A model generated the notes under the pieces. The model ran no database searches. It was not told where the DNA came from and saw only the letters and a list, made by a program, of their open reading frames with translations. This document shows, piece by piece, positions 8,981 through 40,767 of a stretch of 64,000 bases of DNA. Numbering within the stretch: the stretch's first letter is position 1; each line of letters starts with the position of its first letter. Both the position numbers and the translations under genes were made by a program. The stretch is taken from sequence record NC_105514.1. One strand, written 5' to 3'. The DNA comes from Escherichia phage JLBYU40.

Positions 8981-9046
8981 TTTTAAATGAGATTGATTCT
9001 CATTATCATTCGCATTCAAGCGGGCAGGGCAATTGCCCTGCGCTTT

Positions 9047-26907: not shown

Positions 26908-27255
26908 TTAGTCATAGCACCACCATAATCCACGCTTACGCATGTCATGATCGCGATTATAGTCGTAATTTTCTGGATCTTTCATCACGCGATGTAGTTC
27001 TTGGCGATTCCCTTGACGAACCATTTTATTAGAATGCCACTTAACATTCTTACTAATAGAATTCCAGTTATAACCATCCTTTTTCTCATTACGAATGGTT
27101 GCTTCCTTCATTTCCTGTTCTACATCATCCCAGGATTTAGCATAAATAACACGAATCCAGTAGCCATTTTCTTTTAGGAAAGAATATTCTTGAGAGAATT
27201 GCTCTTTAGACTTCCACCACTGATCACCAGATTGTCTACGATAAGTACGGCTCAT
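26908..27255 (-). CDS. hypothetical Trp/basic-rich protein
   Basis: 115 aa ORF. Confidence 0.45.
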   Translation of the reverse strand: MSRTYRRQSGDQWWKSKEQFSQEYSFLKENGYWIRVIYAKSWDDVEQEMKEATIRNEKKDGYNWNSISKNVKWHSNKMVRQGNRQELHRVMKDPENYDYNRDHDMRKRGLWWCYD

Positions 27256-27376
27256 ATTACCTCCATTAAGTCTTTTAAATTAACCTAATGTGGATGAATT
27301 TTATTATACATAAACTATCTCCCTGTATACAGAAAAACCCCAGACTACTTATTCAATAGCTGGGGTTTGTTATTAA

Positions 27377-27691
27377 TTACAGATCGGGGCGTTCATCTTC
27401 GAAACAGCCTGAGCTGATTCCTTCTCCGAATCCTACAAAGCCATCAAATTCATCATTTGAGATGCCAATAATCATTGCTTCCATTTTCCTGATCTCCGAG
27501 GTTTTCATACCTGCTTTACTATTCTTATAGTATTTGCGAGGGTTCCCACACATCCAACAAGAACAGATGCAAGGAGTAGTAGTGACAATACCTAACCGCT
27601 TGGGGCTTTCTTCATGTGGGAAGACTGTCCAATACTTCTTGCGATTGTTCTTCACACGTTGCCGGTGATGGCGTCTTAATGCTCGATCCAC
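27377..27691 (-). CDS. Cys-rich basic protein
   Basis: 104 aa; CICSCWMC cluster. Confidence 0.4.
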   Translation of the reverse strand: MDRALRRHHRQRVKNNRKKYWTVFPHEESPKRLGIVTTTPCICSCWMCGNPRKYYKNSKAGMKTSEIRKMEAMIIGISNDEFDGFVGFGEGISSGCFEDERPDL

Positions 27692-27772
27692 ACATTTCTC
27701 CTAAAACTTGGGAGATAAATGGAGTTTGCTCGACTACCTTGCGTAGCTGGGAGAAATCGTATCCAAACCCCA

Positions 27773-28141
27773 TTACATCGCCTGAGTAAATGTACGACTA
27801 ATAACGTCGTTCTGTTGTTCACGAGTCAGTGCGTTAAATCGAACAGCGTAGCCAGATACACGGATAGTTAATTGAGGGTATTTTTCAGGATGTTTCTGTG
27901 CGTCTAAAAGCTGATCACGACTTAACACATTGACATTTAGGTGCTGACCGCCTTCGATTTGAGGGGCGACTTCCACTTTGACTTCACGGAAGGCTTCGGG
28001 ATCGAATTGTGGTGTGATACCTTCTAGATCTTCAACTAGAACTTTCTGTTTAAGTTCACCGTTATCGGAGTATAGCTGAATGATCTGATTTTCATGAACG
28101 AGATTGATTACGCCAGATTTAAGATTTTGATATGCTTTCAT
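27773..28141 (-). CDS. autonomous glycyl-radical cofactor (GrcA/YfiD-like)
   Basis: 122 aa; C-terminal RVSGYAVRF glycyl-radical motif. Confidence 0.6.
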
Positions 28142-28183
28142 TAGATCTCCCTGATGTTAGAATTTGGCTCAGCTCTTTATTCT

Positions 28184-28378
28184 CTATAGTTTACCACGAT
28201 ATACAGAAACTGTCTTACCAGTTTGGTTCATAACGTATGCTACTTCATCTTCTTTTAAGAAGATTGCTTGATCTATTCCAGAAATAGCTATGCTTTTATT
28301 TCTGGGATTAAACCCTACGCTTTTACCAACATGGATCTGCTCACCACCATCAGTGGACATTATTTTAACTGTTAACAT
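28184..28378 (-). CDS. hypothetical protein
   Basis: 64 aa ORF. Confidence 0.35.
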   Translation of the reverse strand: MLTVKIMSTDGGEQIHVGKSVGFNPRNKSIAISGIDQAIFLKEDEVAYVMNQTGKTVSVYRGKL

Positions 28379-28415
28379 AATTGCTCCTATATTTAGCTAT
28401 CTCTAGCTCTTTTAA

Positions 28416-28491
28416 TGGTAGTTAGTAGTGGATTTGAACCACTGTAGTCGCTCCGTATGAAGGAGGTGCATAACCACTCTGCCAACTAACT
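28416..28491 (-). tRNA. tRNA (anticodon CAT; Met, fMet or Ile2)
   Basis: hand-folded: 7-bp acceptor AGTTAGT/ACTAACT, T-arm, encoded CCA, anticodon loop TTCATAC. Confidence 0.55.
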
Positions 28492-28587
28492 GTTATGTTT
28501 TACTAGACTAAGTAAGTATTCTTTATACTCTTTAGACCAATTAGCTTTTTTAAACTTTCCTGGACGCATAGTCTTAATTCCTAAATT

Positions 28588-28664
28588 TGGTACTCCGGGA
28601 GGGATTTAAACCCCCGATCTCTCGGTTATCAGCCGAGTGCTTTAGATCGCTAAGCTACCGAAGC
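28588..28664 (-). tRNA. tRNA-Ile (GAT)
   Basis: acceptor with two G-U pairs, T-arm, CCA, anticodon loop CTGATAA. Confidence 0.55.
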
Positions 28665-28665
28665 A

Positions 28666-28893
28666 TTAACATTTTACAGCAGAACGTTTGCCATTTCTAG
28701 GTGCACCTGGAAGTCGTGCACGTTCTGCCATTCTTCGCTTAATCTTTGAGATATCTTCTAGTGTTTGTTCTTCAGGCTTAATACCTGAAACACTACACCA
28801 CTGATTACCATCCCATGCGGTAATGATCATAACACCGTTACTCATGATCTTTTCTGTGAAAGTAATCCTCATTATAGCAACTCGTCTAAGCAA
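28666..28893 (-). CDS. hypothetical protein
   Basis: 75 aa ORF. Confidence 0.35.
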   Translation of the reverse strand: MLRRVAIMRITFTEKIMSNGVMIITAWDGNQWCSVSGIKPEEQTLEDISKIKRRMAERARLPGAPRNGKRSAVKC

Positions 28894-29165
28894 GAGGTAT
28901 ATTTAAGTTTACCATCTTTATCTACTTTGATTTCGACTTCCGCTCGTGGTACTTGACGAACTACACCATGAATCATCTTATAGTTAATAGACTTAGACGG
29001 TTCATAATCTTTTGTGAAGACTTGCTTAATCGTTACTACCTTGTACCCATCACGCGGTGTTAACACAACAACTTGATCACCTTCTTTGATCTTCCAAGAG
29101 CTAGGAAATTCATAGGTATAGCGTTGACCACCAGTTTGGAACACAACAGAAAGATAACGTTTCAT
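28872..29165 (-). CDS. hypothetical protein
   Basis: 97 aa; downstream of early promoter 29195-29223. Confidence 0.45.
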   Translation of the reverse strand: MKRYLSVVFQTGGQRYTYEFPSSWKIKEGDQVVVLTPRDGYKVVTIKQVFTKDYEPSKSINYKMIHGVVRQVPRAEVEIKVDKDGKLKYTSCLDELL

Positions 29166-29194
29166 TTGGTTTCCCTCTCATTAATTTATATAAA

Positions 29195-29223
29195 TATTAT
29201 AACAAGAAATAAGAGAGAAAGCA
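29195..29223 (-). promoter_or_regulatory. early promoter
   Basis: -35 TTGCTT, 17-bp spacer, -10 TATAAT; leader ATATAAATTAATGAGAGGG. Confidence 0.55.
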
Positions 29224-29232
29224 AATGAATTT

Positions 29233-29427
29233 TTAATAAAGTTTAGTCACTTCATAAACTATACTACGAGATTCTTTATTTCGTTCTATTAAATTAGTAT
29301 ATGCTTTTTCAGCTTCATTTTTAGTATTAAAGTCTATAACGTGGGAGGTATTCGCTCTATTTGATTGACTATACCAGATAACTACTAACAGTTTAAACAT
29401 AATAGTCCTTAAATTGGTGCTGGGCAC
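29233..29427 (-). CDS. hypothetical protein (start uncertain)
   Basis: 64 aa ORF; listed start overlaps a tRNA 3' end, so the internal Met near 29400 is more likely. Confidence 0.3.
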   Translation of the reverse strand: MPSTNLRTIMFKLLVVIWYSQSNRANTSHVIDFNTKNEAEKAYTNLIERNKESRSIVYEVTKLY

Positions 29428-29501
29428 AGGATTCGAACCTGCAGCGGGATTACTCCTCCTGATTACAAATCAGGTGCATTCAACCATTCTGCCAACCCAG
29501 C
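29415..29501 (-). tRNA. type II tRNA, anticodon unresolved (canonical register TGT)
   Basis: perfect acceptor, GGTTCGAATCC T-arm, CCA, ~15-nt variable arm; anticodon stem CCTGA/TCAGG with loop TTTGTAA. Confidence 0.45.
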
Positions 29502-29666
29502 AGAACCCGTTATTTCAACGGGATTTCTTTTTCAATAACAGGAGACTTATCAGTCATAACTGCCATTGCCATTTGTTGTAGAAATTCAAAGGTGAAGGCT
29601 ACACGTTCTTCACCAATCTCTACTTCTACACGTTTCTTTTGTTTGTCGATCTTGACTTTTAGGTTA

Positions 29667-29918
29667 TCAGCCATTAGATAGTACAGTACTGGTAGTTGGC
29701 AATACTACAGATGAAGCAACAGTATTTAAATGCTTTCTCCAGTCTAGGTTAAATTGTTTTCGAAACTCTTCATAAGGTTCTTCTGGATAAAAGCTAAAAC
29801 CTCCTTTCTCATCATTCAGGATAACAGTGCCGTCAGTTTGTTCGTATGCTCGGTATGTTTCTCCAATAACAATAACTCGTTTATCAGTACTTTTATTACG
29901 GAACTCAAAAACGTGCAT
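29667..29918 (-). CDS. hypothetical protein
   Basis: 83 aa ORF. Confidence 0.4.
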   Translation of the reverse strand: MHVFEFRNKSTDKRVIVIGETYRAYEQTDGTVILNDEKGGFSFYPEEPYEEFRKQFNLDWRKHLNTVASSVVLPTTSTVLSNG

Positions 29919-29934
29919 AACGTTTCCTTAAAGT

Positions 29935-30010
29935 TGGAGCGGCTAGAGGGAATCGAACCCTACTCAGCGAGGCTTGGAAGGCCTGCGGCACAACCCGTAT
30001 GCTTAACCGC
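29935..30010 (-). tRNA. tRNA-Gly (TCC)
   Basis: acceptor GCGGTTA/TAGCCGC, T-arm GGTTCGATTCC, CCA, anticodon loop CTTCCAA. Confidence 0.55.
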
Positions 30011-30018
30011 TTATTATT

Positions 30019-30094
30019 TGGCTGGAGAAGGAGGAATCGAACCTACCATTAACGGAGTCAAAGGCCGTTGTGCTAACCGTTACACTACTCTCCA
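30019..30094 (-). tRNA. tRNA-Gln (TTG)
   Basis: U1-A72 acceptor, anticodon loop CTTTGAC, CCA. Confidence 0.55.
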
Positions 30095-30100
30095 ATTATT

Positions 30101-30176
30101 TGGCTGGGATGCCACGGATCGAACGTGGAACCTTCGGAGTCAGAGGCCGACGATCTGCCAATTGATCTACATCCCA
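30101..30176 (-). tRNA. tRNA-Gln (CTG)
   Basis: U1-A72 acceptor, anticodon loop CTCTGAC, CCA; close paralog of the previous tRNA. Confidence 0.55.
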
Positions 30177-30188
30177 ATAATTTTTATT

Positions 30189-30383
30189 CTACGGAAAAAT
30201 TGTTGTTGGCTCAGATTCTTCCAAACGTTTGCCTTCATGATCTACTCGAATAACTCCGCATCCCTCGCAAATCACAACAGCACCGTAGCCTTCTTTAACT
30301 TCAGCTTCTGTAATCAAACCAGAAAGATCACCAGTATCTCTGCCCCACATATCAATGGAGCATTGTTTGCAGAAATCAGCCAT
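30189..30383 (-). CDS. hypothetical Cys-containing small protein
   Basis: 64 aa ORF. Confidence 0.4.
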   Translation of the reverse strand: MADFCKQCSIDMWGRDTGDLSGLITEAEVKEGYGAVVICEGCGVIRVDHEGKRLEESEPTTIFP

Positions 30384-30408
30384 ATTTTATTTCCTATTTA
30401 AGTTAATT

Positions 30409-30485
30409 TGGGGTGGCTAGTGGAATTCGAATCCACATAGGCCTGATTCACAATCAGGATCATTAACCAATTATGATATAGCCAC
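30409..30485 (-). tRNA. tRNA-His (GTG)
   Basis: perfect acceptor, D, anticodon (loop TTGTGAA) and T stems; discriminator C; CCA. Confidence 0.65.
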
Positions 30486-30853
30486 AATTGAAAACTCGCA
30501 GGGTTAGCGAAACCATCCTCAATTAGCATGTTCTAGAATACTAATCAAGTTATCTCCTATTGCACGCAGCTCAAGACGAGTACGAATTTTCAATTGTGGC
30601 GGCTCTCCGAAACTCTTCTACTCTAGCCTTAGCAGCTTACTCCCGAACGCATGTCGGGAAAGTCTTACTAAGAGCATCAAATAGCACCGTTACACTTTGA
30701 GCCATTGATGTATCAAGGAATAGAAGGACTTGAACCTTCATGAGTTAGACCATTTAACTCAACCGCTTTTAAGGTATATTTCTAGGAGTGGATGTTCCTA
30801 GTAAACCTATTGGGCAGTCCCGTCTACCAATTCCGGCATATTCCAAGAATTAT

Positions 30854-31105
30854 TTAAAACTTATAGCCTTCAGGAACCTTATCTTTAACACCGTCATACT
30901 TAGCCTGAATGTAGTAGTCTGGTACATGATCTTTTGGCAGATTTTTATTAGTATCATGAACCTCAGCTCTAGCTTCTTCTTCAGAATCAAAGCCACGATA
31001 CCAGATTTCACCGCCCCACCCACGTTCACTTTCAGTATACTTAACAATATGTTTCATAAGGTTTTCCTTATAAGTTGGAGGAAGGTAATGGAGTCGAACC
31101 ATCAC
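30854..31105 (-). CDS. hypothetical protein
   Basis: 83 aa ORF between tRNA blocks. Confidence 0.45.
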   Translation of the reverse strand: MMVRLHYLPPTYKENLMKHIVKYTESERGWGGEIWYRGFDSEEEARAEVHDTNKNLPKDHVPDYYIQAKYDGVKDKVPEGYKF

Positions 31106-31165
31106 CGTATCACTACAGCGGGCTAGTTTTCAAGACTAGTTGCGTACCACTACGCCCTACCTTCC
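31076..31165 (-). tRNA. tRNA-Ser (TGA), type II
   Basis: acceptor GGAAGGT/ACCTTCC, anticodon loop CTTGAAA, long variable arm, CCA. Confidence 0.55.
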
Positions 31166-31172
31166 ATTTGTT

Positions 31173-31263
31173 TGGCGGAAGAGGAGAGATTTGAACTCTC
31201 AAGCCGTTTTACCAGTCAGCCACTTTCCAAGCGGTTTTCGTCGCCAATTCGATTTGCTCTTCC
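31173..31263 (-). tRNA. tRNA-Ser (GGA), type II
   Basis: perfect acceptor, T-arm GAGAG-TTCAAAT-CTCTC, CCA, long variable arm; 4-bp anticodon stem with one G-U, loop TTGGAAA. Confidence 0.45.
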
Positions 31264-31299
31264 AATAATAAGATGATGCCTCTATCACACCAGGCAGTT

Positions 31300-31372
31300 A
31301 CGCCTCGCTGGGATTCGAACCCATTAAAACAGCTCAACCGAGATAGTAGGTTTAGTTTACTCTGACCATCAA
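31300..31372 (-). other. tRNA-like element (T-arm only)
   Basis: canonical T-arm (rc of CTGGGATTCGAACCC) in a slot between two tRNAs, but no complementary acceptor or anticodon stem found. Confidence 0.2.
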
Positions 31373-31375
31373 ATT

Positions 31376-31452
31376 TGGTGCGTGACAAGGGATTCGAACC
31401 CTCAAAACCCGACTTCTAAGGACGGTATGTATGCCAATTCCATCAATCACGC
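31376..31452 (-). tRNA. tRNA (anticodon TAG, Leu-type; short variable loop)
   Basis: good acceptor, T-arm, CCA; anticodon stem has one U-U mismatch, loop CTTAGAA. Confidence 0.4.
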
Positions 31453-31457
31453 GTATT

Positions 31458-31531
31458 TGGTGGAGAAAGAGGGAGTTGAACCCTCGTCTTCTGCGTGCAA
31501 AGCAGATGTTCTACCATTAAACTATATCCCC
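31458..31531 (-). tRNA. tRNA-Ala (TGC)
   Basis: G3-U70 pair in acceptor, anticodon stem TCTGC/GCAGA, loop TTTGCAC, CCA. Confidence 0.6.
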
Positions 31532-31769
31532 AAATTCTTTAGTTTACTAAGGCTATTAGCTCGGCGTAACTACAGCACCTTCGCTTCGAGCGGAAGTAAC
31601 CGCGTCATCTCGCAAACCCGATACACTATTCAGTTGCCGCTGAATCTAGTGGACTAATCTAGAACCTCTCCCAAATCGTAGGGATCGTGCTTTTTGGCAG
31701 CCAGTCCTAGGTCGAGCTAATACCTTAGTGAACTATGATGAGGATTTCTCCTCATCAATTTATATAAAT

Positions 31770-31798
31770 ATTATAACAAGAAATTAAGCATCAAGCAA
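31770..31798 (-). promoter_or_regulatory. early promoter driving a noncoding leader plus tRNA block
   Basis: -35 TTGCTT, 17-bp spacer, -10 TATAAT; about 200 nt without a plausible ORF before tRNA-Ala. Confidence 0.5.
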
Positions 31799-31816
31799 AT
31801 GAGTTTTTCTTGAAAT

Positions 31817-31895
31817 TGGTAGATCGCCTGGGACTCGAACCCAGAACCTTCCGATTAAAAGTCGGATGCTACTAAACCTATTGAGCTAGCGATCT
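31817..31895 (-). tRNA. tRNA-Lys (TTT)
   Basis: perfect acceptor, anticodon stem TCCGA/TCGGA, loop CTTTTAA, CCA. Confidence 0.6.
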
Positions 31896-32084
31896 ATTAA
31901 TAACTATTGTATACTTCTTTAATAGAGTGAACTTTCAAGTAAGGGTGATTAGTACTAAACTCTATCATTACTTCATCCCAATTTTTACCATAATGAGCAA
32001 GTAAGGATTTTGATGTATTCTTACCTAAACGTTTGTCACTTACTACTAATCGAAATACTTTCATTTCGAAATCCTCTATTAAAG

Positions 32085-32162
32085 TGGAAGCGGGTGCAGG
32101 AATCGAACCTACCTCTTTCTAGCTTATGAGACTAGCGATCTCTACCAGAGATCTAACCCGCA
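32085..32162 (-). tRNA. tRNA (anticodon CAT; Met, fMet or Ile2)
   Basis: unpaired 1-72 (U-U), D-stem GATC/GATC, anticodon loop CTCATAA, CCA. Confidence 0.45.
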
Positions 32163-32168
32163 ATTGTT

Positions 32169-32246
32169 TGGTCTCCGTGGGAGGATTTGAACCCCCGACC
32201 CTATCGCCCCAAACGAAACGCTCTGGCCAAACTGAGCTACACGGAG
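32169..32246 (-). tRNA. tRNA-Pro (TGG)
   Basis: perfect acceptor, D-arm GCTC/GAGC, anticodon loop TTTGGGG (stem with one U-U), CCA. Confidence 0.5.
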
Positions 32247-32619
32247 AATATTATTTCTTTAACCACAGCAAAGATAAGCCCAGCATACTAAAACCGCTAA
32301 CTAATCCGATACATTTTTCTTCTATAGTAAAAGTATCTAGATTAAATGCTGTTATAGCTATTGGCATACACCATAATGCCATAAAAACTTGAGATATCTT
32401 GTGTTTCATTTTGCTTTCCTTCTCTTCACTTTATAAAATATATTATACAGATAATAAAGCAGAATAGCAAATGAATTTTTAATAAATTTACTTATTGTGT
32501 AGGCCACCTGGAGGCTACCAACCCCACGGCTGACAAAGAAGTTTGCGAGACCTCTCTTAAATGCCAGAATAGACCCGCCGGTCTATCGGAACCTACATAA
32601 TAAGTAAACTTTATAGTGT

Positions 32620-32740
32620 CATTCTAGACAGGACTCGAACCTGTTATCACTTGTGCGGACTTACGAGAACCATTCTTTCACTCGAATCGAACGAGCTTCT
32701 GCCCCCGCCAAGCTGGTTTCCCCATCAACCACGCTAGAAT
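32620..32740 (-). other. oversized tRNA-like element (~120 nt)
   Basis: canonical T-arm (rc of ACAGGACTCGAACCTGT) but the only complementary acceptor partner lies ~115 nt away; no CCA. Confidence 0.2.
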
Positions 32741-32862
32741 GTTTGATTGTTTTCAGTGCAAGAGTCCGAGTCTTGGACACGACCGCTTCGCAAGTACATA
32801 GGCGGCTTATCATGAGTCAGCACTTCCGAATTGCTAGCTTCGTGTTCTGCACTGAAATTTTG

Positions 32863-33210
32863 TTAATTTAATAGTAAAGTACGATCTACTTCACCATTAA
32901 TTGTTCGGCATTCTTCTGGGATTGCTGGTGTAGTCTTATATTCCCACCATTCAGAACCATCATATTCACCACGTTCTAACCAAGTTCCATCGGTAAACCA
33001 TACGTTACCATAAAGCAATTGTCCGCCGAAACCAGAATCATATTTAAAGTCTAGATTATCTAGAAAATCTTCAATATCTTTTTCTGTATAACCTACGGGT
33101 AATACCCAAACTTCTTTATCCCCATAATAACCGAATTCTATCTTAATACACTTAACTTCAGAATTAGTATTCTTTAGGGCAAGTAACAATTCTTCTTTAG
33201 CATTAATCAT
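32863..33210 (-). CDS. hypothetical acidic protein
   Basis: 115 aa ORF. Confidence 0.45.
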   Translation of the reverse strand: MINAKEELLLALKNTNSEVKCIKIEFGYYGDKEVWVLPVGYTEKDIEDFLDNLDFKYDSGFGGQLLYGNVWFTDGTWLERGEYDGSEWWEYKTTPAIPEECRTINGEVDRTLLLN

Positions 33211-33236
33211 AGCGTATTTCTCGTGCTAGTTTAGTT

Positions 33237-33313
33237 TGGCGCGACCGATGGGATTCGAACCCACATTCTCTCCCGTGACAGGGGAGTACCATTACCAAGC
33301 CAGCCCCGGTCGC
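33237..33313 (-). tRNA. tRNA-Asp (GTC)
   Basis: perfect acceptor, anticodon stem CTCCC/GGGAG, loop CTGTCAC, CCA. Confidence 0.65.
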
Positions 33314-33322
33314 ATAATTCAT

Positions 33323-33508
33323 TTACTCAGCTTTGAGTTTTTCAATAGCTGCATTAAGTTCCTTAAGAAACTCTTTTCGTACATTAAGACGATTAAGACT
33401 TACTAGTATATCATGTTTAAGTTCTTCGATGTATTTCTTCTCAACTTCAATATTGTTGATAGTGCTATCACGATGAACTTCTAGCTGTGCAATTACGTTC
33501 TTGGACAT
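33323..33508 (-). CDS. hypothetical coiled-coil protein
   Basis: 61 aa ORF. Confidence 0.35.
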   Translation of the reverse strand: MSKNVIAQLEVHRDSTINNIEVEKKYIEELKHDILVSLNRLNVRKEFLKELNAAIEKLKAE

Positions 33509-33610
33509 GCTTGTTTCCTCAGTTATTAATGAAAATGGTATCTGTGGCTGAATTCGATGTCAGCAATGATAGCTGGTTGGCTACCGGTTTACTTAACTCT
33601 ACACAGAATT

Positions 33611-33688
33611 TGGCGGTTCCTGCTGGATTCGAACCAGCAACCCTCAACTTAACAAGATGCCGCTCTAACCAATTAGAGCTAAGGAACC
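33611..33688 (-). tRNA. tRNA-Asn (GTT)
   Basis: perfect acceptor and T-arm, CCA; anticodon loop TTGTTAA but stem has two mismatches. Confidence 0.45.
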
Positions 33689-34183
33689 ATATAAGTCAGA
33701 ACTAGAGTTAATACGTTCTAGATATTTACTAAGATCTCTAGAATTTATACTAAACCACTCATGTTCTTTTAAATCTTTGAAATACTGGTGAATTAGTTTT
33801 TCACCTTTTCGTTTGTCAAACCAAAAAGACCAATGCTCTAACTTATAATCCCTATAAGGGGAATAAGTCTGATATTGAGCTAATCTCTCTTTTGGATTTT
33901 GACTCATACCTATTTTATACTGATTTTTCCATGCAGGATTACTAATACAGTATACAAAACCTTCAGAAATAGGAAGTTTATTTTCCTGCTTAAACTTTAT
34001 AAAGGAAAGTGCAGCAAGTTTTCTCGAATACATAGTATTTGTATTCTTTTTGGTATTACCATTGGTTCCTGAAAGATTTATATATTCTTCCATAAATCTT
34101 TGGATTAGTTCTGCGGTTATATAGAAGGGCTCATTAGTAACAATACCTTTCTTTACCAAACTATCAAAAACTCTTGTATGCAC
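33665..34183 (-). CDS. T5orf172-domain (GIY-YIG-like) protein
   Basis: 172 aa; GFVYCISNP...YKIGMSQNPKERLAQY resembles the T5orf172 motif; 3' end overlaps tRNA-Asn by ~24 nt. Confidence 0.55.
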   Translation of the reverse strand: MHTRVFDSLVKKGIVTNEPFYITAELIQRFMEEYINLSGTNGNTKKNTNTMYSRKLAALSFIKFKQENKLPISEGFVYCISNPAWKNQYKIGMSQNPKERLAQYQTYSPYRDYKLEHWSFWFDKRKGEKLIHQYFKDLKEHEWFSINSRDLSKYLERINSSSDLYGSLALIG

Positions 34184-34204
34184 TACTTCTTTCCTTTAGT
34201 AATT

Positions 34205-34280
34205 TGGACGACCGCATGAGATTTGAACTCACATAAAAAGGATTTGCAATCCTTCGCCTAAGCCATTCAGCCAACGGTCG
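34205..34280 (-). tRNA. tRNA-Cys (GCA)
   Basis: acceptor with terminal G-U, anticodon stem AAGGA/TCCTT, loop TTGCAAA, CCA. Confidence 0.55.
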
Positions 34281-34357
34281 GTTTATCTTGTTCTGTCATG
34301 TTGCTTCTCCAGTTCAATTTATGTAATTATTATACAGAACTTTTGGAAACTAAGCAA

Positions 34358-34627
34358 CTACATTTTTAAGAATTTGATGCCTTTCTTTTTCTTCTTATAT
34401 TTCCACGTTAATGGATTCTGCCGATTGTGAACGCTTGAGATCTTCGTCTCGTCAAAGTTCTTCAATATCATGTAATCACAAGATAATTGTTCTAATGGAA
34501 TGTGATCACCGTCAAAAGCATATACATAAGGCTGTTGACTAACACGATAATGATAGACTTTGTTAATTCTACGTTTTAGCGACTTATCAGCGCAGTAAAT
34601 AAAGAAGTTTTCAGGATGCATCAGCAT
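34358..34627 (-). CDS. hypothetical basic protein
   Basis: 89 aa ORF. Confidence 0.4.
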   Translation of the reverse strand: MLMHPENFFIYCADKSLKRRINKVYHYRVSQQPYVYAFDGDHIPLEQLSCDYMILKNFDETKISSVHNRQNPLTWKYKKKKKGIKFLKM

Positions 34628-34638
34628 CTCCTTCGATT

Positions 34639-34713
34639 TGGTGCACCCTGTTCGTATCGAACGAACCTCTCAAGCTCTTCAGGCAAGCGCTAATCCATCT
34701 CAGCTAAAGGTGC
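34639..34713 (-). tRNA. tRNA, probably Phe (GAA)
   Basis: good acceptor, T-arm, CCA; anticodon loop CTGAAGA but stem has two U-U mismatches. Confidence 0.4.
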
Positions 34714-34719
34714 AAATTT

Positions 34720-34796
34720 TGGCAAACCTACTAGGACTCGAACCTAGACCGTACGGTTTTGGAGACCGACATGCTGTCCAGTAACACTCTAGGAAT
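34720..34796 (-). tRNA. tRNA-Trp (CCA)
   Basis: anticodon arm CGGTCTCCAAAACCG as in bacterial tRNA-Trp; perfect T-arm; acceptor has two U-U mismatches; CCA. Confidence 0.5.
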
Positions 34797-34804
34797 GCAG
34801 AAAT

Positions 34805-34881
34805 TGGCGTCCTGTGCGGGGATCGAACCCGCAAATCCTACCTTGAAAGGGTAGTGACTTTACCAGTTTGTCTAACAGGAC
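34805..34881 (-). tRNA. tRNA-Glu (TTC)
   Basis: perfect acceptor, anticodon stem CTACC/GGTAG, loop CTTTCAA, CCA. Confidence 0.65.
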
Positions 34882-34888
34882 TTAAATT

Positions 34889-34979
34889 TGGTGTTGGATG
34901 ATGGAGTCGAACCACCCGAGACCCTTCCGAGTCGGCAGATTTACAGTCTGCTTCGCTACCTCTACGATACTAATCCAAC
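34889..34979 (-). tRNA. tRNA-Tyr (GTA), type II
   Basis: anticodon arm GCAGACTGTAAATCTGC, long variable arm, CCA. Confidence 0.65.
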
Positions 34980-35107
34980 ATATTTAAAAGTATTCAAATA
35001 CTAGTTTAAACACTTTTAAATATGTTTCCGAATTAGATAACTATTATATCAAGTTTTAAGGCACTGAGCAAGTCAAATTTTAAAGAACTTGCTCAGTGCT
35101 GTATTAG

Positions 35108-35383
35108 TTAGTCGAACTTAGGAGTGACAGTTAAGGAGAACGGAAGTTCGAAAACTTCTTCGCCCTCATTACTAACGGTAACTACACGACCTTTAAGTTC
35201 AGACATTAAAATATCAATATCAGCTTTTGCATCTGGAGCCATGCCAGCTTCAATACATTTAGCTTTAACTTCCGGTAAAAGCTCTACGTTATAGAGATAG
35301 AGCCACTCAATCTCACCTTCCCAGTCTTCCCAGGATTTGCAGATTGCACTTTCAATACCAGTTGCTACAACACGATTTTGCAT
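35108..35383 (-). CDS. hypothetical acidic protein
   Basis: 91 aa ORF with early promoter upstream. Confidence 0.45.
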   Translation of the reverse strand: MQNRVVATGIESAICKSWEDWEGEIEWLYLYNVELLPEVKAKCIEAGMAPDAKADIDILMSELKGRVVTVSNEGEEVFELPFSLTVTPKFD

Positions 35384-35473
35384 TAATTAACTCCTTCATC
35401 AATTTATATAACTATTATACCAGAAATTTAAAGTAAAAGGCAAGTACATTTTTAAAAATTCTGTTTGGAGGAG

Positions 35474-35680
35474 CTAAACTCCAGATTTTTCGGCCAAGTC
35501 TAGACTAATAAGAGTTATAGCCATAATTGCTGCACCGTGTTCTTTTTCTCCGGTGTTTTTAGCAGAGTCTATAATATCCTTAATCTGTTCGTAATAACTT
35601 TTTACTTCTTGTTCAATGCCTGCCTCGGCTATCATGCCTTTAGCCATGAATCGTTGCATGGTAATTTCAGGATTAGCCAT
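35474..35680 (-). CDS. hypothetical protein
   Basis: 68 aa ORF. Confidence 0.4.
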   Translation of the reverse strand: MANPEITMQRFMAKGMIAEAGIEQEVKSYYEQIKDIIDSAKNTGEKEHGAAIMAITLISLDLAEKSGV

Positions 35681-35855
35681 GTTGTTTCTCCAGTTTCATT
35701 TTTAATAGTTTACAGATGAAATCAACGTCTTCATCTGTGCCTAAGTCTCTATCCTCAAGGGTCGCCTTGAAGTTTTTCGTCAATTCCATGAGGATGACTT
35801 CCCTAGAACGACGTGTTGGCGGAGGTGGATGTCTATACATCTTATTTCCTTAATT

Positions 35856-35932
35856 TGGTAGGGGTGGTGGGATTCGAACCCACAAAACCTGAATTTTAAG
35901 TCCAGTACCTATGCCAATTCGATTACACCCCC
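35856..35932 (-). tRNA. tRNA (anticodon TAA, Leu-type; short variable loop)
   Basis: acceptor GGGGGTG/CACCCCT, anticodon stem CTGGA/TTCAG, loop CTTAAAA, CCA. Confidence 0.45.
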
Positions 35933-36148
35933 GTGTAATTTAGTCAATTACTTTTGAAGCTTCAAGGTAGTCGATATAGTGTACGTTTTCTACCGTAATC
36001 ATATAATCTGCCACTTTATCCATAGCTTGGGCTTCAGAGGTAGCTCTGGCTAACCTATATCCTTTTTTATATTCATCAGAGTATTCTCTATCTTGAATAA
36101 ACACAACATAAACTACGTATAATTCCACTTGTAACCCCCTAATTAAGT

Positions 36149-36226
36149 TGGTGGCTCCCCGAGGATTCGAACCTACGTACCTTCCGGTTATGAGCCGGGT
36201 GCTCATACCATATGAGCTTGAGAACC
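36149..36226 (-). tRNA. tRNA (anticodon CAT; Met, fMet or Ile2)
   Basis: acceptor with two G-U pairs, D-arm GCTC/GAGC, anticodon loop CTCATAA, CCA. Confidence 0.5.
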
Positions 36227-36232
36227 AAAATC

Positions 36233-36321
36233 TGGCGGAAGAAGTGGGAATCGAACCCACAAGGCTATATTTCAAACCGACAGATTAGCAATCTGCTGCA
36301 ATACCGTTATGCTATTCTTCC
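36233..36321 (-). tRNA. tRNA-Ser (GCT), type II
   Basis: perfect acceptor, anticodon stem GCAGA/TCTGT, loop TTGCTAA, long variable arm, CCA. Confidence 0.6.
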
Positions 36322-36342
36322 GAATTTATAAGATATATTATA

Positions 36343-36862
36343 TTAGAAATTTAGCTTCATAGCAAGAAAATTTTTCAAGTTTTCGGTAGACATCTCATCT
36401 ACATCTACAGGAGAAACAAAGCCGTTTAATTTTCTAGCAAATTTTTCACCATCGGGATCATTGTCTCCAACAGCTACCAATTTAAAAGGTAGTAATTTCA
36501 GTTGCTTTAATAACGCTTTTCCTGGAGAAGAACCCAACATTGCTAGGGCTGGATAACCAGCGTTATGTAACGCAACTGCCTTAAATACAGATTCAGCAAT
36601 CAATACTACTTTTTCATCTCCATTGAGAGTTTCTAGTCCCCATACACACTGGGTAGTAGAATAAGTAAAGTATTTAGCTTCAAAGGGGCACTTACCATGA
36701 CCTTTTGGAGCAGAAGGATTATAAGTTTGATAGCCCCTCAACATCCCAGAGAAGTCATACAACGGGACTGTTAGCCATCCTTCTGGACTTAACCAGCAAT
36801 GATATTTATCTGTATCAAATCCCCTAGATAAGAGGTGCTGTGTTAGCTCATCAACATTCATA
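36343..36862 (-). CDS. Toprim-domain protein
   Basis: 173 aa from the Met at 36862 beside an early promoter; IAES...VAVGDNDPDGEKFA resembles the Toprim E + DxD signature. Confidence 0.45.
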
Positions 36863-37036
36863 TTTGGTTCCTCTCTCAAATTTATAGATATATTATACAG
36901 AGAATTTAGCATTCAAGCAATCAAATTTTTTAACTTTTTAGAGGAAAATCATAGGGCGCTTAAGGGTAACAGATAAGTGGTGAGGACCAAAATTTGTGAC
37001 CCCACTAAAAATCCGGGGGCAATTTTTAAAGACCCC

Positions 37037-37065
37037 TTGACATTTTCGCTGGGGTAGTGTAAAGT
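37037..37065 (+). promoter_or_regulatory. sigma70-type promoter of the plus-strand island
   Basis: perfect -35 TTGACA (37037-37042), 17-bp spacer, -10 TAAAGT preceded by TG; unlike the phage early promoter family. Confidence 0.5.
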
Positions 37066-37127
37066 ATATGTTATGGATGAGTGATCAAAGAGACACACAT
37101 TTTCTATATACTAGGAGGTGTCAAAAA

Positions 37128-38114
37128 ATGACAGAAGAAGTAGCTAAGAGTCCTGAGACCGTCGCTAGCGTTGCAGCAGAACTGCACCGTCACGAGGAAT
37201 CAGATAAGAAAAAGTGGGAGAAGGTCAGAGCCTACGAAGAAAAACATCGTGAACACGATGATGAAGAAGATGACGATGATGAACATTGTCATAAATATGG
37301 AAAACATAAAATGCAAGAACCAGTAAACGTATTCACTAGTGGCTTCCCTGGCCTACTGGGTGGTTACCCAGCAAACGCAGGTGCTTTCGGTGGTGAAGGT
37401 ATGGGACTATTCGGAGCTATCCTAATCGGTGCTCTATTAACAGGTGGATTCGGTGGTTTCGGTGGATTCGGTGGACGTGGTGTAGTTGGTGAAGGTACCG
37501 CAGTTGATGCAGTACTTCAGAACCAAGATACCGCTAGTATTCTAGCAGCTATTAACACTACTCGTACAGAAGCTAATCAGGGTACTGGGGCTGTGTTAAG
37601 CGCAGTTAACAATGGTTTTAGCCAGACATCCCAAAACCAGAGCCGTGATACTCAGTCTGTACTAACTACGATTTATGGTACAGGTGCTAATCTGTCTAAT
37701 CAGATCTGCCAGGAAACTCGCAACGTTATTCAGGGTCAGTTCGATCTTTCTCGCCAGATTGATCAATCTTTCGCAGCTAACCAGATAGCTCGTGCACAAG
37801 ATAAATTTGATTCTGCACAGATCGCTTTCCAGCAGACTTTACAAACTAATAACCAGTTTGCCGCTGTTCAGGCTCAGATGTGTGCTAACCAGAACTCTCT
37901 GGAACGTCAGATCGCTGAATGTTGCTGTGAACTTCAGACTGCGATCGCTGGTGTAACTACTGCGCGTATCCAGGATGAGTTAGATGCATGTCGCCTACGT
38001 GAGGCAATCGCTGCGGGTAATGGTGCTAACGATCAGGTAATTAATCAAATCGCTGTAAGTCTTGGTGCAATCACTCAGACTCTGGCTGGTCTGCAGGCTA
38101 AACTGCCGGCTTAA
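37128..38114 (+). CDS. glycine-zipper membrane protein with acidic/His-rich N-terminus and Q/N-rich C-terminus
   Basis: 328 aa from ATG 37128 (RBS TAGGAGGTG); GLFGAILIGALLTGGFGGFGGFGG segment; CCC motif; GC visibly above flanks. Confidence 0.55.
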   Translation: MTEEVAKSPETVASVAAELHRHEESDKKKWEKVRAYEEKHREHDDEEDDDDEHCHKYGKHKMQEPVNVFTSGFPGLLGGYPANAGAFGGEGMGLFGAILIGALLTGGFGGFGGFGGRGVVGEGTAVDAVLQNQDTASILAAINTTRTEANQGTGAVLSAVNNGFSQTSQNQSRDTQSVLTTIYGTGANLSNQICQETRNVIQGQFDLSRQIDQSFAANQIARAQDKFDSAQIAFQQTLQTNNQFAAVQAQMCANQNSLERQIAECCCELQTAIAGVTTARIQDELDACRLREAIAAGNGANDQVINQIAVSLGAITQTLAGLQAKLPA

Positions 38115-38135
38115 TATTAAGGGGAGGAGCCCATT

Positions 38136-38552
38136 ATGAGTAAATATGGTTTTGTAAATAACGGACTTAATCAAAGTATGGGCTCCCAGCAGCCCATTCC
38201 GGGTCTGGATAACCCCTACTTACAACAATTGCAACAGCGTTTAGCAGAAGCGCAACAGATGCAGCAACAACTCCAGCAAAACCCTGGAAGTGTGAGTCCT
38301 ATGCAAATGATGCAGCAAATGAGCGGGCAGTCGCAAATGCCTCAACAAATGCAGCAACAGGTGCCTCAGCAGCAAGTTCAGCAACAAACCCAACAACCGC
38401 AGGTTTCTGCGGAAGGACAGGCAGTACTAGCCCTTTTCGAAGACTTCGCAAAGACAGAGGATGGGAAACAGCTTGTATCACTTATGGGTAAGTTTAATAG
38501 CTTCTGCCAAAGCCAGGTTGCAAAAGCTCAAAATAGTGGTAATAACTCCTAA
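38136..38552 (+). CDS. glutamine-rich low-complexity protein
   Basis: 138 aa; RBS GGGGAGGAG; long Q/M/P-rich stretch. Confidence 0.5.
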   Translation: MSKYGFVNNGLNQSMGSQQPIPGLDNPYLQQLQQRLAEAQQMQQQLQQNPGSVSPMQMMQQMSGQSQMPQQMQQQVPQQQVQQQTQQPQVSAEGQAVLALFEDFAKTEDGKQLVSLMGKFNSFCQSQVAKAQNSGNNS

Positions 38553-38561
38553 GGAGGAATT

Positions 38562-38756
38562 ATGTGTTGCAGAAAATCTGTTTCGTGCTGCCCAATGCCT
38601 GTAGCACGTTGTTGCTCTCCAGCAATGTTTACGCAAATACCGGCGTTCAATCCGTTTGCCTTTAAGCCTACTCTTATCCTGCCCCCTAGAGTAGATTTTC
38701 AGTCAAGATTGGCCTCCCGTATGGGTAGTTGCTGTAACAAGAGTATATGGTTCTAA
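38562..38756 (+). CDS. small Cys-rich protein
   Basis: 64 aa; RBS AAGGAGG; four CC doublets. Confidence 0.45.
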   Translation: MCCRKSVSCCPMPVARCCSPAMFTQIPAFNPFAFKPTLILPPRVDFQSRLASRMGSCCNKSIWF

Positions 38757-38769
38757 GGAACCAAACAAT

Positions 38770-38810
38770 AAAGCCCCTAGTCGAAAGACTTAGGGGCTTT
38801 TCTTTTATCT
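38770..38810 (+). terminator. Rho-independent terminator of the plus-strand island
   Basis: ~11-bp GC-rich stem with GAAA loop followed by TTTTCTTTTATCTT. Confidence 0.6.
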
Positions 38811-38851
38811 TAAATACAGAAAAGCCCTGCGCTCTCTAGGAAACGCAGGGC
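38811..38851 (-). terminator. Rho-independent terminator for the SPFH gene
   Basis: 9-bp stem AGCCCTGCG/CGCAGGGCT with a T-run on the minus strand. Confidence 0.55.
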
Positions 38852-38876
38852 TTATTTCAGATGTTACATGCGGGTA

Positions 38877-39824
38877 TTATTTATTACGCATATCCATAAT
38901 CATTTGGCCATCATAGCCAGTGCCAACCACAGTCTGCGGTACACCACCTTGGTATTTCTGAGCACGAATCATTTCAACTTCCAGTTGCTTCCAGCGAATC
39001 ATCTCAGGAGTAATGGTACGTTGCAATGCGGCGTTAGCTTCAGCTTCTTTCTTAGCTGCATATAGTTTAGCATCTGCGTCACGTTCATTGGCAATAGCTT
39101 GGTTGTTGCGAGCTTCACGGTCTGCTTCTGCTTGTTTAACTTTTTGCTGTGCTTCCTGTTCAACGCGAGCCAGTTCAGCTTTCGCAGCATTAACTTGCTC
39201 TTCACGAACTTTGGTATTCTGTACCTGTTCCATGATTACCGGTGGCAAAGTAATATCCTGAAGGAATACCTGCTTAACTGTATAACCATATGGGCGTGCA
39301 TACTCTTCAACTTCCTGTTGAATTGCAGTTTGCAATTGAGCCTGAATTTTAGCATCAAACAAATCTTGTGCTTTAGGTACAGACTTACCAAACTCACGAA
39401 TAGTAGACAGTAATTTTTCAGTTACATACTTGTCTAGTGCCTGATCCTGAGTACCTGCGTTAATACGGTTAATTGGTGCCTTAGAACCATCAAACTGCAA
39501 CATAACAGTCAGGTCAACAGTGGATTTAAACTTATCCTGGCTAGGAACCTGAAGTTTATCTAATTTTACAGCAATATCTTTTGTACTAAAAGTGTCGAAA
39601 GATGCAAATGGGTTTACAAGATGGAAACCTGGTAATACTGGGTTAGGATCTACTTTACCCAGAAATGTTTGGGTTTTAACCGTACCATCAGAAACAATAG
39701 TATATGAATTAAAAGCTAGGATTAAACCTGCTAAACCAACTACAGCACCAATACCCCAACGTTTAATAGTACGAATTACTTTCTGCTCAGAAGTCAGTTC
39801 TTTCATATTTTTAGTATTAAACAT
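38877..39824 (-). CDS. SPFH/band-7 (prohibitin/HflC-like) membrane protein
   Basis: 315 aa; N-terminal TM helix, SPFH-like core, long charged coiled-coil C-terminus. Confidence 0.6.
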   Translation of the reverse strand: MFNTKNMKELTSEQKVIRTIKRWGIGAVVGLAGLILAFNSYTIVSDGTVKTQTFLGKVDPNPVLPGFHLVNPFASFDTFSTKDIAVKLDKLQVPSQDKFKSTVDLTVMLQFDGSKAPINRINAGTQDQALDKYVTEKLLSTIREFGKSVPKAQDLFDAKIQAQLQTAIQQEVEEYARPYGYTVKQVFLQDITLPPVIMEQVQNTKVREEQVNAAKAELARVEQEAQQKVKQAEADREARNNQAIANERDADAKLYAAKKEAEANAALQRTITPEMIRWKQLEVEMIRAQKYQGGVPQTVVGTGYDGQMIMDMRNK

Positions 39825-39858
39825 ATATTTCCTTTGTTTTAGTTACAGTTAATAAAAT

Positions 39859-39933
39859 TGGCCGAGGTGACAGGATTCGAACCTGCATAAAGGAATTTAG
39901 AAGACTCCTGCCTCTCCCTTAGACTACACCCCG
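39859..39933 (-). tRNA. tRNA-Arg (TCT)
   Basis: acceptor CGGGGTG/CACCTCG, anticodon stem GGAGT/ATTCC, loop CTTCTAA, CCA. Confidence 0.5.
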
Positions 39934-40435
39934 TTTAAGTATTTTTAAGAACTCTCGTAAAAACTCTTAAAAATACAGACGATACCGGGAGAGTCATAGG
40001 TCTCACTCATTAAGTATTTCAAGACAAAATACAGTAACGTCTATTATTTTCCAGTTTAAGTCAGGGTGACTTAGTGGTTATGTCCTGCGGTATATTGAGG
40101 ACTCGGTTAGGCTTGGGGTCATGACTTCCCGCCTTTTGCTGCTACTCAACAGGAGTTATCGCGAATTACCTGTGCTATTGTGCACCATTAGTGACATCTC
40201 TCATGCCAGCATTTCCCACTTTGTGGATAGCTTGAAAAACTACTCCGATATGGAGAAAGAACTTCACTATCCTAGAATACCTTCTAAAGTTCTTCTTTAG
40301 CCTGGACATAGTTAAATCGTAATAAAACTATTCAGCAGACCGGTTGGTTAGTCTGGAACCAACTACCGCGTGGTTTAGGCAGTGCGCAACTAACCTCGGA
40401 AGCTTTTACGTTAAAAGCATCAGTTATCCAGTTCT

Positions 40436-40507
40436 TACCGACCGTAGGATTCGAACCTACATCTTCCACCAGTTACGGCTTGATAATACCAATTATACTA
40501 GGACGGC
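40436..40507 (-). tRNA. tRNA, anticodon unresolved
   Basis: perfect T-arm, acceptor with one U-U mismatch, no encoded CCA; no convincing anticodon stem by eye. Confidence 0.3.
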
Positions 40508-40730
40508 AGTGTTACTACATAAGTGATTTCCACACCCCACTATTTATAAATTAGAGAAGAGTTTAGGGAAGAGGTTTCAGACGCCTCATTTTACACGTTC
40601 TAGCCACTAACCGGGATTGCCGCCCCCTGTGTACTAGTTTTACAACTAACCCACCGACTCTATTCAATGCACTCCGGTTGGGATTCTGCACTCAGCGTAA
40701 TCGGCTCGCTGTTCCCTAATTTATGAATAT

Positions 40731-40759
40731 ATTATACAGAATTTATAAGCATTTAGCAA
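40731..40759 (-). promoter_or_regulatory. early promoter
   Basis: -35 TTGCTA, 17-bp spacer, -10 TATAAT. Confidence 0.5.
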
Positions 40760-40767
40760 ATGAATTT

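Follow-up and report, generated by a model that had tools for sequence, protein, structure and literature searches.

The tRNA region of bacteriophage T5 carries eight misc_RNA features in the reference record (NC_005859). Among them are RNA2 (rna2, T5s06; 32959-33083), described there as a "tRNA-like stable RNA with unknown functions", and RNAIV (rnaIV, T5s05; 32838-32940), a "stable RNA with unknown functions". A 1982 paper by Ksenzenko et al. on the stable RNAs of T5 is cited in PMC8084836. We found no open paper describing RNA2 or RNAIV, and the two RNAs have no Rfam family and no function recorded in the sources reached. In T4, the species 1 and 2 RNAs (rnaC and rnaD, of 139 and 119 nucleotides, nt) are likewise small stable RNAs of similar size that end the tRNA cluster of the phage, and their roles are stated as unknown (PMC3014915; see also PMC9697503). 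Here we describe a segment of Escherichia phage JLBYU40 (NC_105514.1), at 32490-32870 of a window of 64,000 nt, the whole stretch of DNA that was analysed. The original prediction, made from the sequence of the window, had proposed for this segment a structured RNA, tRNA-like or containing an insertion, or else a recombination hotspot.

The segment is not a spacer. On the strand of the tRNA genes, positions 32484-32857 hold three consecutive, independently folding RNA modules, structured, conserved and non-coding, which we call A, B and C in 5' to 3' order (Table 1). The minus strand is the one to be read since all 22 tRNA genes called by ARAGORN, between 28416 and 39933, lie on it. When the misc_RNA features of T5 were placed on the window by BLAST, B matched RNA2 with 96.0% identity over all 125 nt and C matched RNAIV, while the alignment of the full region to T5 is 97% identical. 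The synteny is also that of T5, with the homologue of T5.067, A, RNA2, RNAIV, the promoter P13a, the homologue of T5.066 and tRNA-Pro. RNA2 and RNAIV of T5 are the closest known RNAs, with the same order, strand and neighbours and few substitutions; those of B include GCGGGGG in the window against GCGAGGG in T5, in the extended arm, and an A-U pair against G-U in the T-stem. The 501 bases around the segment show 99.4% identity to Salmonella phage SPLA5b and Escherichia phage Baret and match about 500 phage records, and the phage of the window is T5-like. Comparison with the syntenic region of related phages, which had been proposed as a check, has thus returned conserved modules and the orthologues of two T5 RNAs. 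That B is the RNA2 orthologue and has a cloverleaf-type fold, both taken jointly, can be held with high confidence. RNA2 and RNAIV already appear in the T5 reference record. The present analysis adds a tested fold of RNA2 with a second T-arm module, the spread of its family into T4-like and metagenomic phages, a structure for RNAIV and the finding that the antisense "hypothetical protein" of many records is spurious.

To examine the fold of B, homologues were gathered with BLAST and with pattern scans that covered IMG/VR, metagenomes and species genomes, and a covariance model was built from ten diverse sequences. The parts follow each other as an acceptor stem AUUCUAG/CUAGAAU of 7 base pairs (bp), or 8 bp counting the flanking C-G pair, 2 linker nt, a D-arm, a 63-nt arm, a variable loop of 5 nt (UGAUA), a T-arm and the tail G-ACA. 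RNAalifold, which is independent of our model, recovers the acceptor, the D-arm, the long arm, its inner hairpin and the T-arm, with compensatory change in 24 of 31 predicted pairs. In the refined structure 96.0% of the cells are paired and 23 of the 31 pairs have changed on both sides. When the partners were slid by 1-3 columns, pairing fell to 32-44% and the covariation score from 0.494 to 0.04-0.09, and the observed values were reached in none of 500 shuffles. For the acceptor, D and T helices (helices 1, 2 and 5) pairing is 94-98%, with compensatory change in 15 of the 17 pairs. Acceptor variants such as AUUCUAG, AGACAAU, GACUUUG, ACUGACC and GGUCAUC each come with the matching 3' strand, and the D-stem changes from UGGUU/AACCA here to UGACU/AGUCA in Erwinia phage KEY and AGCUC/GAGCU in the IMG/VR contig L005.

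The three sequence features reported by the original prediction are all present, at positions 1-3 nt away from those given, and they turn out to be stems of the three modules. The T-arm with a distant acceptor partner belongs to B, where a perfect 8-nt inverted repeat, CATTCTAG/CTAGAATG, joins 32620-32627 and 32734-32741. The 7-bp hairpin ATAGACC/GGTCTAT lies at 32569-32575 and 32580-32586 and is arm 1 of RNAIV; its loop has 4 nt (CGCC), and not 5 nt as stated for a hairpin at 32566-32584. The long-range inverted repeat TTTCAGTGCA/TGCACTGAAA (32751-32760 and 32848-32857) is perfect over 10 nt, reaches 13 nt if one mismatch is allowed and forms the closing stem of A. The strongest repeat had not been listed: 20 nt, 90% complementary, between 32484-32503 and 32592-32611, which is the closing stem of C. 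These repeats exceed chance, because the window copy of B scores 143.6 bits with the covariance model (78-145 bits for true homologues) against 15-40 bits for ordinary tRNAs of the same loci, and because the stems covary. The main proposal, a structured tRNA-like RNA carrying an insertion, was correct: the T-arm element is orthologous to T5 RNA2 and forms a cloverleaf in which one arm has 63 nt.

This arm takes over the position of the anticodon arm and consists of an irregular rod, about 10 bp in all (CUUG/CAAG, GC/GC, a bulge of 1-2 nt, GGGC/GUCC), followed by a cap. The basal stem, CUUG/CAAG in the window, has 4-6 bp and covaries across homologues, and the closing pair of GGGY/RUCC switches between C-G, in 18 sequences, and U-A, in 7. 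Inside the arm there is a T-arm look-alike, whose stem occurs as CUCG/CGAG, UUGG/CCAA, AUGG/CCAU, ACGG/CCGU or CCCG/CGGG. The single strand next to it, with the family form UGAAAGAAUGGUUC-N-CGUAA, is the most conserved part of the whole family; it contains a D-loop-like AAUGGUU, and its CGUAA abuts RUCC as positions 34-38 of an anticodon loop would. Still, the spacing from UGG to CGUAA varies from 2 to 6 nt across lineages and any of U, A, C and G can stand where U33 would be, depending on the lineage, so this is not a decoding anticodon loop. The invariant columns are gathered in the insert, while the stems of the tRNA scaffold vary and compensate. Since these columns sit there, and since T4-like copies keep the insert and the T-arm, the sequences suggest that the insert is the functional part of B. 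In our model the inner T-loop would dock on the GG of the conserved strand, so that the arm would end in a second "elbow" like that of tRNA.

Other arrangements of the insert were considered and rejected. The first model had an anticodon-stem-loop-like hairpin, UGG(UU)/(RU)CCR, which was dropped because it showed one-sided changes only, and GGGY/RUCC was used instead. Two alternative pairings, one between the UGGUU strand and the D-stem and one between CUCG and the inner stem, occur only in T5-like sequences and are not conserved. A mini-ORF (open reading frame) or tmRNA-like tag (transfer-messenger RNA) was discarded, the AUG-to-UAA frame being not conserved, with an offset of 9, 10 or 12 nt by lineage. 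A hammerhead-like core and local UAA/GAN or GAA/UUC hairpins are not conserved in the versions of Klebsiella and Yersinia phages.

Table 1. Position, strand and supporting evidence of the RNA modules, their parts and neighbouring features in the window.
Feature	Position	Strand	Evidence
Module A, 107-nt branched hairpin, UUUCAGUGCAGAA...UUGCACUGAAA	32751..32857	minus	closing-stem inverted repeat; predicted fold
Module B, orthologue of T5 RNA2, 125-nt tRNA-like stable RNA	32617..32741	minus	BLAST, synteny, covariance model
B, acceptor 5' strand, C-AUUCUAG	32734..32741	minus	perfect 8-nt inverted repeat with 32620-32627; 7/7 modelled pairs compensatory
B, D-arm UGGUU-GAUGGGGA-AACCA, GG-containing loop	32714..32731	minus	5/5 pairs compensatory
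B, extended arm (63 nt) replacing the anticodon arm	32650..32712	minus	5/10 pairs compensatory
B, inner T-arm look-alike CUCG-UUCGAUU-CGAG	32681..32695	minus	exact G-UUCRAUU-C consensus; 100% paired; 3/4 pairs compensatory
B, conserved single strand UGAAAGAAUGGUUCUCGUAA, 20 nt	32661..32680	minus	invariant or near-invariant columns from T5-like to T4-like phages
B, canonical T-arm ACAGG-UUCGAGU-CCUGU	32628..32644	minus	98.5% paired; 3/5 pairs compensatory
B, acceptor 3' strand CUAGAAUG and 3' tail ACA	32617..32627	minus	sequence
Module C with full closing stem	32484..32611	minus	20-nt inverted repeat at 90%; alignment to the T5 annotation; consensus fold
C, mature part, orthologue of T5 RNAIV, 103 nt	32496..32598	minus	97.1% identity over 103 nt
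C, arm 1, AUAGACC-GGCG-GGUCUAU (7-bp hairpin)	32569..32586	minus	inverted repeat
115-aa ORF (phrog_3972), upstream of module A	33210..32863	minus	T5.067 homologue
Sigma-70-type promoter TTGCTA-17-TATAAT	32442..32470	minus	10/12 consensus match; T5 promoter P13a by T5 annotation
Spurious 72-aa GTG-start ORF, antisense to A and B	32653..32871	plus	ORF list; broken in relatives
Orthologue of T5 RNAIII	30592..30487	minus	100% identity
Orthologue of T5 RNAI, ending in GCCA	30703..30597	minus	92% identity
Orthologue of T5 RNA1, 144 nt	30847..30704	minus	94% identity
Orthologue of T5 RNA2H, 172 nt	31551-31722	minus	98% identity
Orthologue of T5 RNA3, 73 nt, "putative tRNA-like RNA"	33536-33608	minus	100% identity

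Homologues of B are found in Demerecviridae, in T5 and its relatives (Tequintavirus and Epseptimavirus, including Yersinia phage phiR2-01), and further in Erwinia phage KEY, Klebsiella Sugarlandvirus and Providencia Priunavirus. Beyond Demerecviridae, they occur in the T4-like Acinetobacter phages 133 and Acj9 and in an unclassified partial record, Acinetobacter phage AB1I1P (77-84 bits), as well as in L005 (164 kb), the contig L061 (167 kb) and two metagenome contigs, one of them GC-rich. Among 185,579 species genomes the sole genuine match is L061, binned as "bacterium", which has a cluster of 14 tRNAs. In 5,426 complete E. coli genomes there was no full or partial match, even at E = 10, and an origin from the host or from a prophage was rejected on these grounds. 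In the phages that carry it, B is always part of a tRNA cluster, and tRNAs are often its immediate neighbours. An encoded CCA follows the acceptor stem in Erwinia phage KEY, Klebsiella phage GlastoCabaret, Providencia phage PSTCR5 and the metagenome contig L043. In the T4-like copies the D-arm and the acceptor stem are decayed and the insert and T-arm are kept. The pattern scans of IMG/VR and metagenomes also gave chance matches (L033, L035, L036, L039, L044, L046, L048 and L052).

Some side observations were made in these contigs. L005 has two tandem elements of about 130 nt (8968-9097 and 9102-9232), each with a canonical T-arm, a D-arm-like sequence and an insert of about 55 nt, with motifs resembling the conserved strand of B (CGCUCGUAAAUCG and GAAAAUGGUUAUCG); ARAGORN called no tRNA in the 10-kb locus. 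It may be that oversized tRNA-like RNAs form a wider class among large phages. In L061, a tRNA with CUA anticodon (7053-7127; amber-reading, labelled "tRNA-Pyl" by finders) adjoins the B homologue, and another CUA-anticodon tRNA is annotated in Acinetobacter phage Acj9 (L054, 231-303).

B shares with tRNA (RF00005) the 7-bp acceptor, a D-arm with GG, a 5-nt variable loop and a T-arm with G53-UUCRA-C61, besides the location in tRNA clusters and the CCA encoded in some lineages. Unlike tRNA, it has a 63-nt arm instead of a 5-bp anticodon stem with a 7-nt loop, and position 8 of the T5-like copies is C, not U. Searches with Rfam models over 27000-41000, at E up to 1, gave nothing in the segment (no tRNA in 32490-32870, no tmRNA, RNase P RNA, group I intron, ribozyme, bacterial Y RNA (YrlA) or viral tRNA-like structure), and ARAGORN called no tRNA or tmRNA there. 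The suggestion that the segment could be a tmRNA or hold a group I intron, for which such a scan had been proposed, found no match. Group I introns have a catalytic core, P3-P9, of more than about 200 nt and are inserted in the anticodon loop, whereas the insert of B has about 33-55 nt, is more conserved than its flanks and does not match Intron_gpI. The tRNA-like domains of tmRNA and YrlA belong to RNAs that do not decode but engage tRNA-binding proteins through a reused acceptor/T-arm or tRNA elbow. B differs from tmRNA in having no tag ORF and no conserved G3-U70, its pair 3-70 being U-A, and from YrlA RNA, which ends in a Ro-binding stem and not in an acceptor stem.

Within T5 itself, RNA1 (rna1, T5s03, 144 nt, "tRNA-like stable RNA") also has an acceptor, a D-arm, a T-arm and a long rod for the anticodon arm, and it shares with B the loop motifs AAUGGUC and AUCCGC. 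It differs in a long variable arm and the lack of an inner T-loop hairpin, is not alignable with B, and does not score above tRNAs with the B model. As for T4, rnaC resembles B in its canonical T-arm and in ending with ACA, but reaches only 17 bits with the B model (E about 0.1), the range of any tRNA, and rnaD is not matched; blastn of B against both returned T-loop words only. Homology of B to rnaC or rnaD was thus a resemblance by eye, not confirmed by model or blastn. T4 itself has no B homologue, although its relatives Acinetobacter phages 133 and Acj9 have one.

The closing stem of C is made of 10 bp, a 2x2 internal loop and 9 bp. Its consensus fold by RNAalifold is a four-way junction with 46 pairs, 10 of them with compensatory change. 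Arm 1 becomes ACACAUC-GGCG-GGUGUGU in Salmonella phage 1-29 and phage SmurfNell, with two compensatory pairs; arm 2 is long and ends in an invariant 7-nt loop, CUCGCAA; arm 3 is variable, its stem being rebuilt in different lineages. C is present in 405 phage records with identity down to 75%. Its place is always immediately before the promoter, also in phages with an ORF or a tRNA-Gly between B and C. The lower part of the closing stem is probably removed on maturation, because the annotated ends of RNAIV fall at the internal loop. Similar 7-nt loops occur in arm 2 of RNAIV (CUCGCAA, 32534-32540) and in RNA2 (CUCGUAA, 32661-32667), and the recurrence of loop motifs in RNAIV, RNA2 and RNA1 may reflect a shared ligand or chance.

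Module A follows the stop codon of the 115-aa ORF directly, and 9 nt separate it from B downstream. The predicted fold has a 12-bp closing stem and an energy of -32.9 kcal/mol (z = -2.0). It is found in 218 phage records, all with at least 91% identity and with only scattered single substitutions between copies. In NC_005859 it corresponds to the unannotated gap of 121 nt between T5.067 and RNA2, and none of the records inspected has an RNA annotated there. Rather than being a stable RNA, A may serve as a leader or in processing. It is not the RNAI of T5, which is another locus with the same length of 107 nt (window 30597-30703).

The modules behave as separate units. A single 370-nt RNA was ruled out, since the modules are found apart in relatives, split by an ORF or tRNA-Gly. 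A mosaic junction occurs right after the last base of B in several loci (L008, L009, L011, L012, L015, L018 and L029), and what follows differs by phage: C, tRNA-Gly, a small ORF that has a ribosome-binding site of its own or, in L015, a different small RNA with a CCA-type end, GCGGGUG...AACCCGCUACCA. In L011 and L018, A is replaced by a tRNA, annotated as tRNA-Lys in the matching records. In the window, the P13a-type promoter directly downstream of C drives a 52-aa ORF (phrog_18174, T5.066 homologue), tRNA-Pro and tRNA-Met, in this order. No intrinsic terminator was found between the upstream ORF unit and this promoter.

We suggest the following explanation, which we regard as probable as a whole: three RNA modules, of which B is RNA2 and C is RNAIV, processed in the manner of tRNAs, with B acting in trans as a mimic. 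The modules would be cut out of the polycistronic transcript of the tRNA operon by the tRNA-maturation machinery of the host. RNase P would make the 5' end of B, followed by trimming and CCA repair at the 3' end, and C would be cleaved within its long stem. Processing of B as a tRNA-like precursor is likely, because B stays inside tRNA clusters, abuts tRNAs and has an encoded CCA in some phages. It would then accumulate as a stable RNA unable to decode, since a 7-nt anticodon loop is missing and the U33 equivalent is not conserved. In trans, B would be a tRNA mimic, binding through its conserved insert some tRNA-recognising protein of the host or the phage. We put this last step forward tentatively, at somewhat less than even chances, and any specific target would be doubtful.

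Several points weigh against this explanation. The alignment behind the pair counts of B was fitted to the model, so its pairing is somewhat inflated, which the independent RNAalifold result mitigates; the compensations visible by eye agree with it. The inner elbow is a model without covariation, since the contacting nucleotides never vary. The 3' tail of T5-like copies is ACA or ACU, not CCA, so that the addition of CCA is an assumption. Some T4-like copies (Acj133 and L061) have a weak acceptor stem or none, so RNase P processing cannot be universal. The stability of B and C as RNAs is taken from the wording of the T5 annotation. The copies of A are too alike for covariation, its structure is a predicted one, and A is not among the listed stable RNAs of T5. 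Finally, nothing that we found points to a particular binding partner.

As an alternative, B, C and perhaps A could be purely cis-acting processing or 3'-end elements of the operon, with no function in trans. They would then be tRNA-like "punctuation" recognised by RNase P, together with long stems that are cut by RNase III or keep exonucleases off, and would split the upstream mRNA from the next unit. The modules do lie between the last ORF of one unit and the next promoter, where no intrinsic terminator was seen, and C keeps its place upstream of the promoter despite the ORF or tRNA-Gly inserted after B. The closing stem of C, of about 21 bp, with the annotated RNAIV ending at its internal loop, and the absence of A from the list of stable RNAs also fit. 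Yet the highest conservation is in single-stranded loops and in the insert of B, not in the stems that processing enzymes need; B is kept in unrelated contexts, including T4-like tRNA arrays where punctuation is not needed; and the T5 record calls RNA2 and RNAIV stable RNAs. A cis-acting reading is plausible, most of all for A and for the outer part of the C stem, and unlikely as an account of all the modules.

A bolder version of the trans-acting mimic concerns defence. The tRNA-cleaving defences countered by phage tRNA clusters comprise PARIS AriB, retron-Eco7, Septu and Schlafen. Such clusters have been described as counter-defence loci against tRNA-cleaving immunity (PMC12409363, PMC13096335, PMC13056530): T5 tRNAs rescue infection from PARIS (PMC12409363) and, as cited in PMC13096335, from retron-Eco7, and T5 is targeted by a tRNA-cleaving Schlafen (PMC13056530). 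The RNA2 family could be a "double-elbow" tRNA mimic, a decoy or inhibitor of a tRNA-recognising host factor, most attractively a tRNA-cleaving defence nuclease. Its anticodon arm would be rebuilt as a rod with a second elbow, T-loop/D-loop-like, showing the 3' half of an anticodon loop (N-GUAA-RUCC), and the family would have been exchanged horizontally between Demerecviridae and T4-like phages. Two observations weigh against a decoy: three T5 tRNAs suffice for escape in the PARIS study (PMC12409363), and GUAA-R-UCC resembles the AriB site UAAUC|A only weakly. We think it improbable in this specific form. If it were true, RNA2 would be the first non-decoding RNA in the counter-defence arsenal of tRNA clusters, and the stable RNAs of phages would gain a function. 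Since phage tRNA clusters have been shown to counter tRNA-cleaving immune systems, a conserved non-decoding tRNA mimic within them is in any case a testable candidate for a counter-defence or host-takeover RNA; if B is only a processing element, the practical value would be a better annotation of about 470 phage genomes.

The remaining explanations are contradicted by the data. B could be a true tRNA gene, for example tRNA-Thr(CGU)-like, with a short intron that is spliced out to give a decoding tRNA. Besides the tRNA-like scaffold and the canonical D-arm in L043, removal of B positions 41-73 leaves GGGC-CUCGUAA-GUCC, with a canonical 7-nt loop of C32, U33, CGU, A37 and A38. This supposed intron would be the most conserved part, however, and its "exons" vary freely; U33 may be any nucleotide and the spacing 5' of CGUAA varies; the arm would still be about twice the length of an anticodon arm after the deletion; the insert, of about 33-55 nt, has no match to group I or other Rfam models, and there is no ARAGORN tRNA; and the 125 nt annotated in T5 are the unspliced length. 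We consider this very improbable. Slightly more improbable is that the inverted repeats act as DNA, being a recombination hotspot, a target of homing endonucleases or a signal for replication or packaging. The region is indeed a mosaic, with four module types after the 3' end of B and A swapped for tRNA-Lys in some phages, and HNH endonuclease genes are annotated in the tRNA region of T5. The idea of a hotspot, also raised before, holds only in the weak sense that module borders are mosaic junctions among related phages. The breakpoints lie between modules, though, not inside the repeats, which are RNA helices and not recombination sites: they covary as RNA, including G-U pairs valid on the minus strand only, and show cloverleaf-type junctions and the T-loop consensus.

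That the region codes for a protein is the most improbable of all, because the 72-aa ORF on the plus strand, even if it exists and many records have "hypothetical protein" features there, begins with GTG, runs opposite to every neighbouring gene, matches no PHROG family, is impossible in phages without A, and is broken in T5 and relatives by in-frame stops (T5, L009, L013, L015, L026 and L027) or frameshifts (L028 and L049). The earlier statement that the segment has no ORF of 60 aa or more was thus not strictly true, but this ORF is not a gene, as its frame is broken in T5 and several close relatives.

The annotation of this region deserves a comment. Many GenBank records of T5-like phages place one to five "hypothetical proteins" over the A/B region. 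In the second T5 record (AY587007) the features given there are a promoter and a repeat, with no RNA, and these RNAs are likewise absent from almost all T5-like records. RNA2 and RNAIV, although present in the T5 reference, are therefore missing from almost every T5-like annotation and often replaced by a spurious antisense "hypothetical protein", a systematic gap that affects several hundred genomes.

The other small stable RNAs of T5 that were tested are all conserved in the phage of the window (Table 1), in a mapping that left out RNAX (719 nt). A second non-coding block of about 360 nt, at 30487-30847 (minus strand), is flanked by tRNA-His and a small ORF and holds three of them, the orthologues of RNAIII, RNAI and RNA1, and a weak Rfam tRNA match at 30715-30783 falls inside the RNA1 orthologue. 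Two further Rfam tRNA matches on the minus strand are above the gathering score without an ARAGORN call, 36152-36226 (40.3 bits) and 40436-40507 (35.5 bits); the T5 annotation has tRNA-Ile2(CAU) at the position matching the former and a pseudo-tRNA near the equivalent of the latter. A sub-threshold Rfam match resembling tRNA-Sec is also seen at 29938-30011 on the minus strand.

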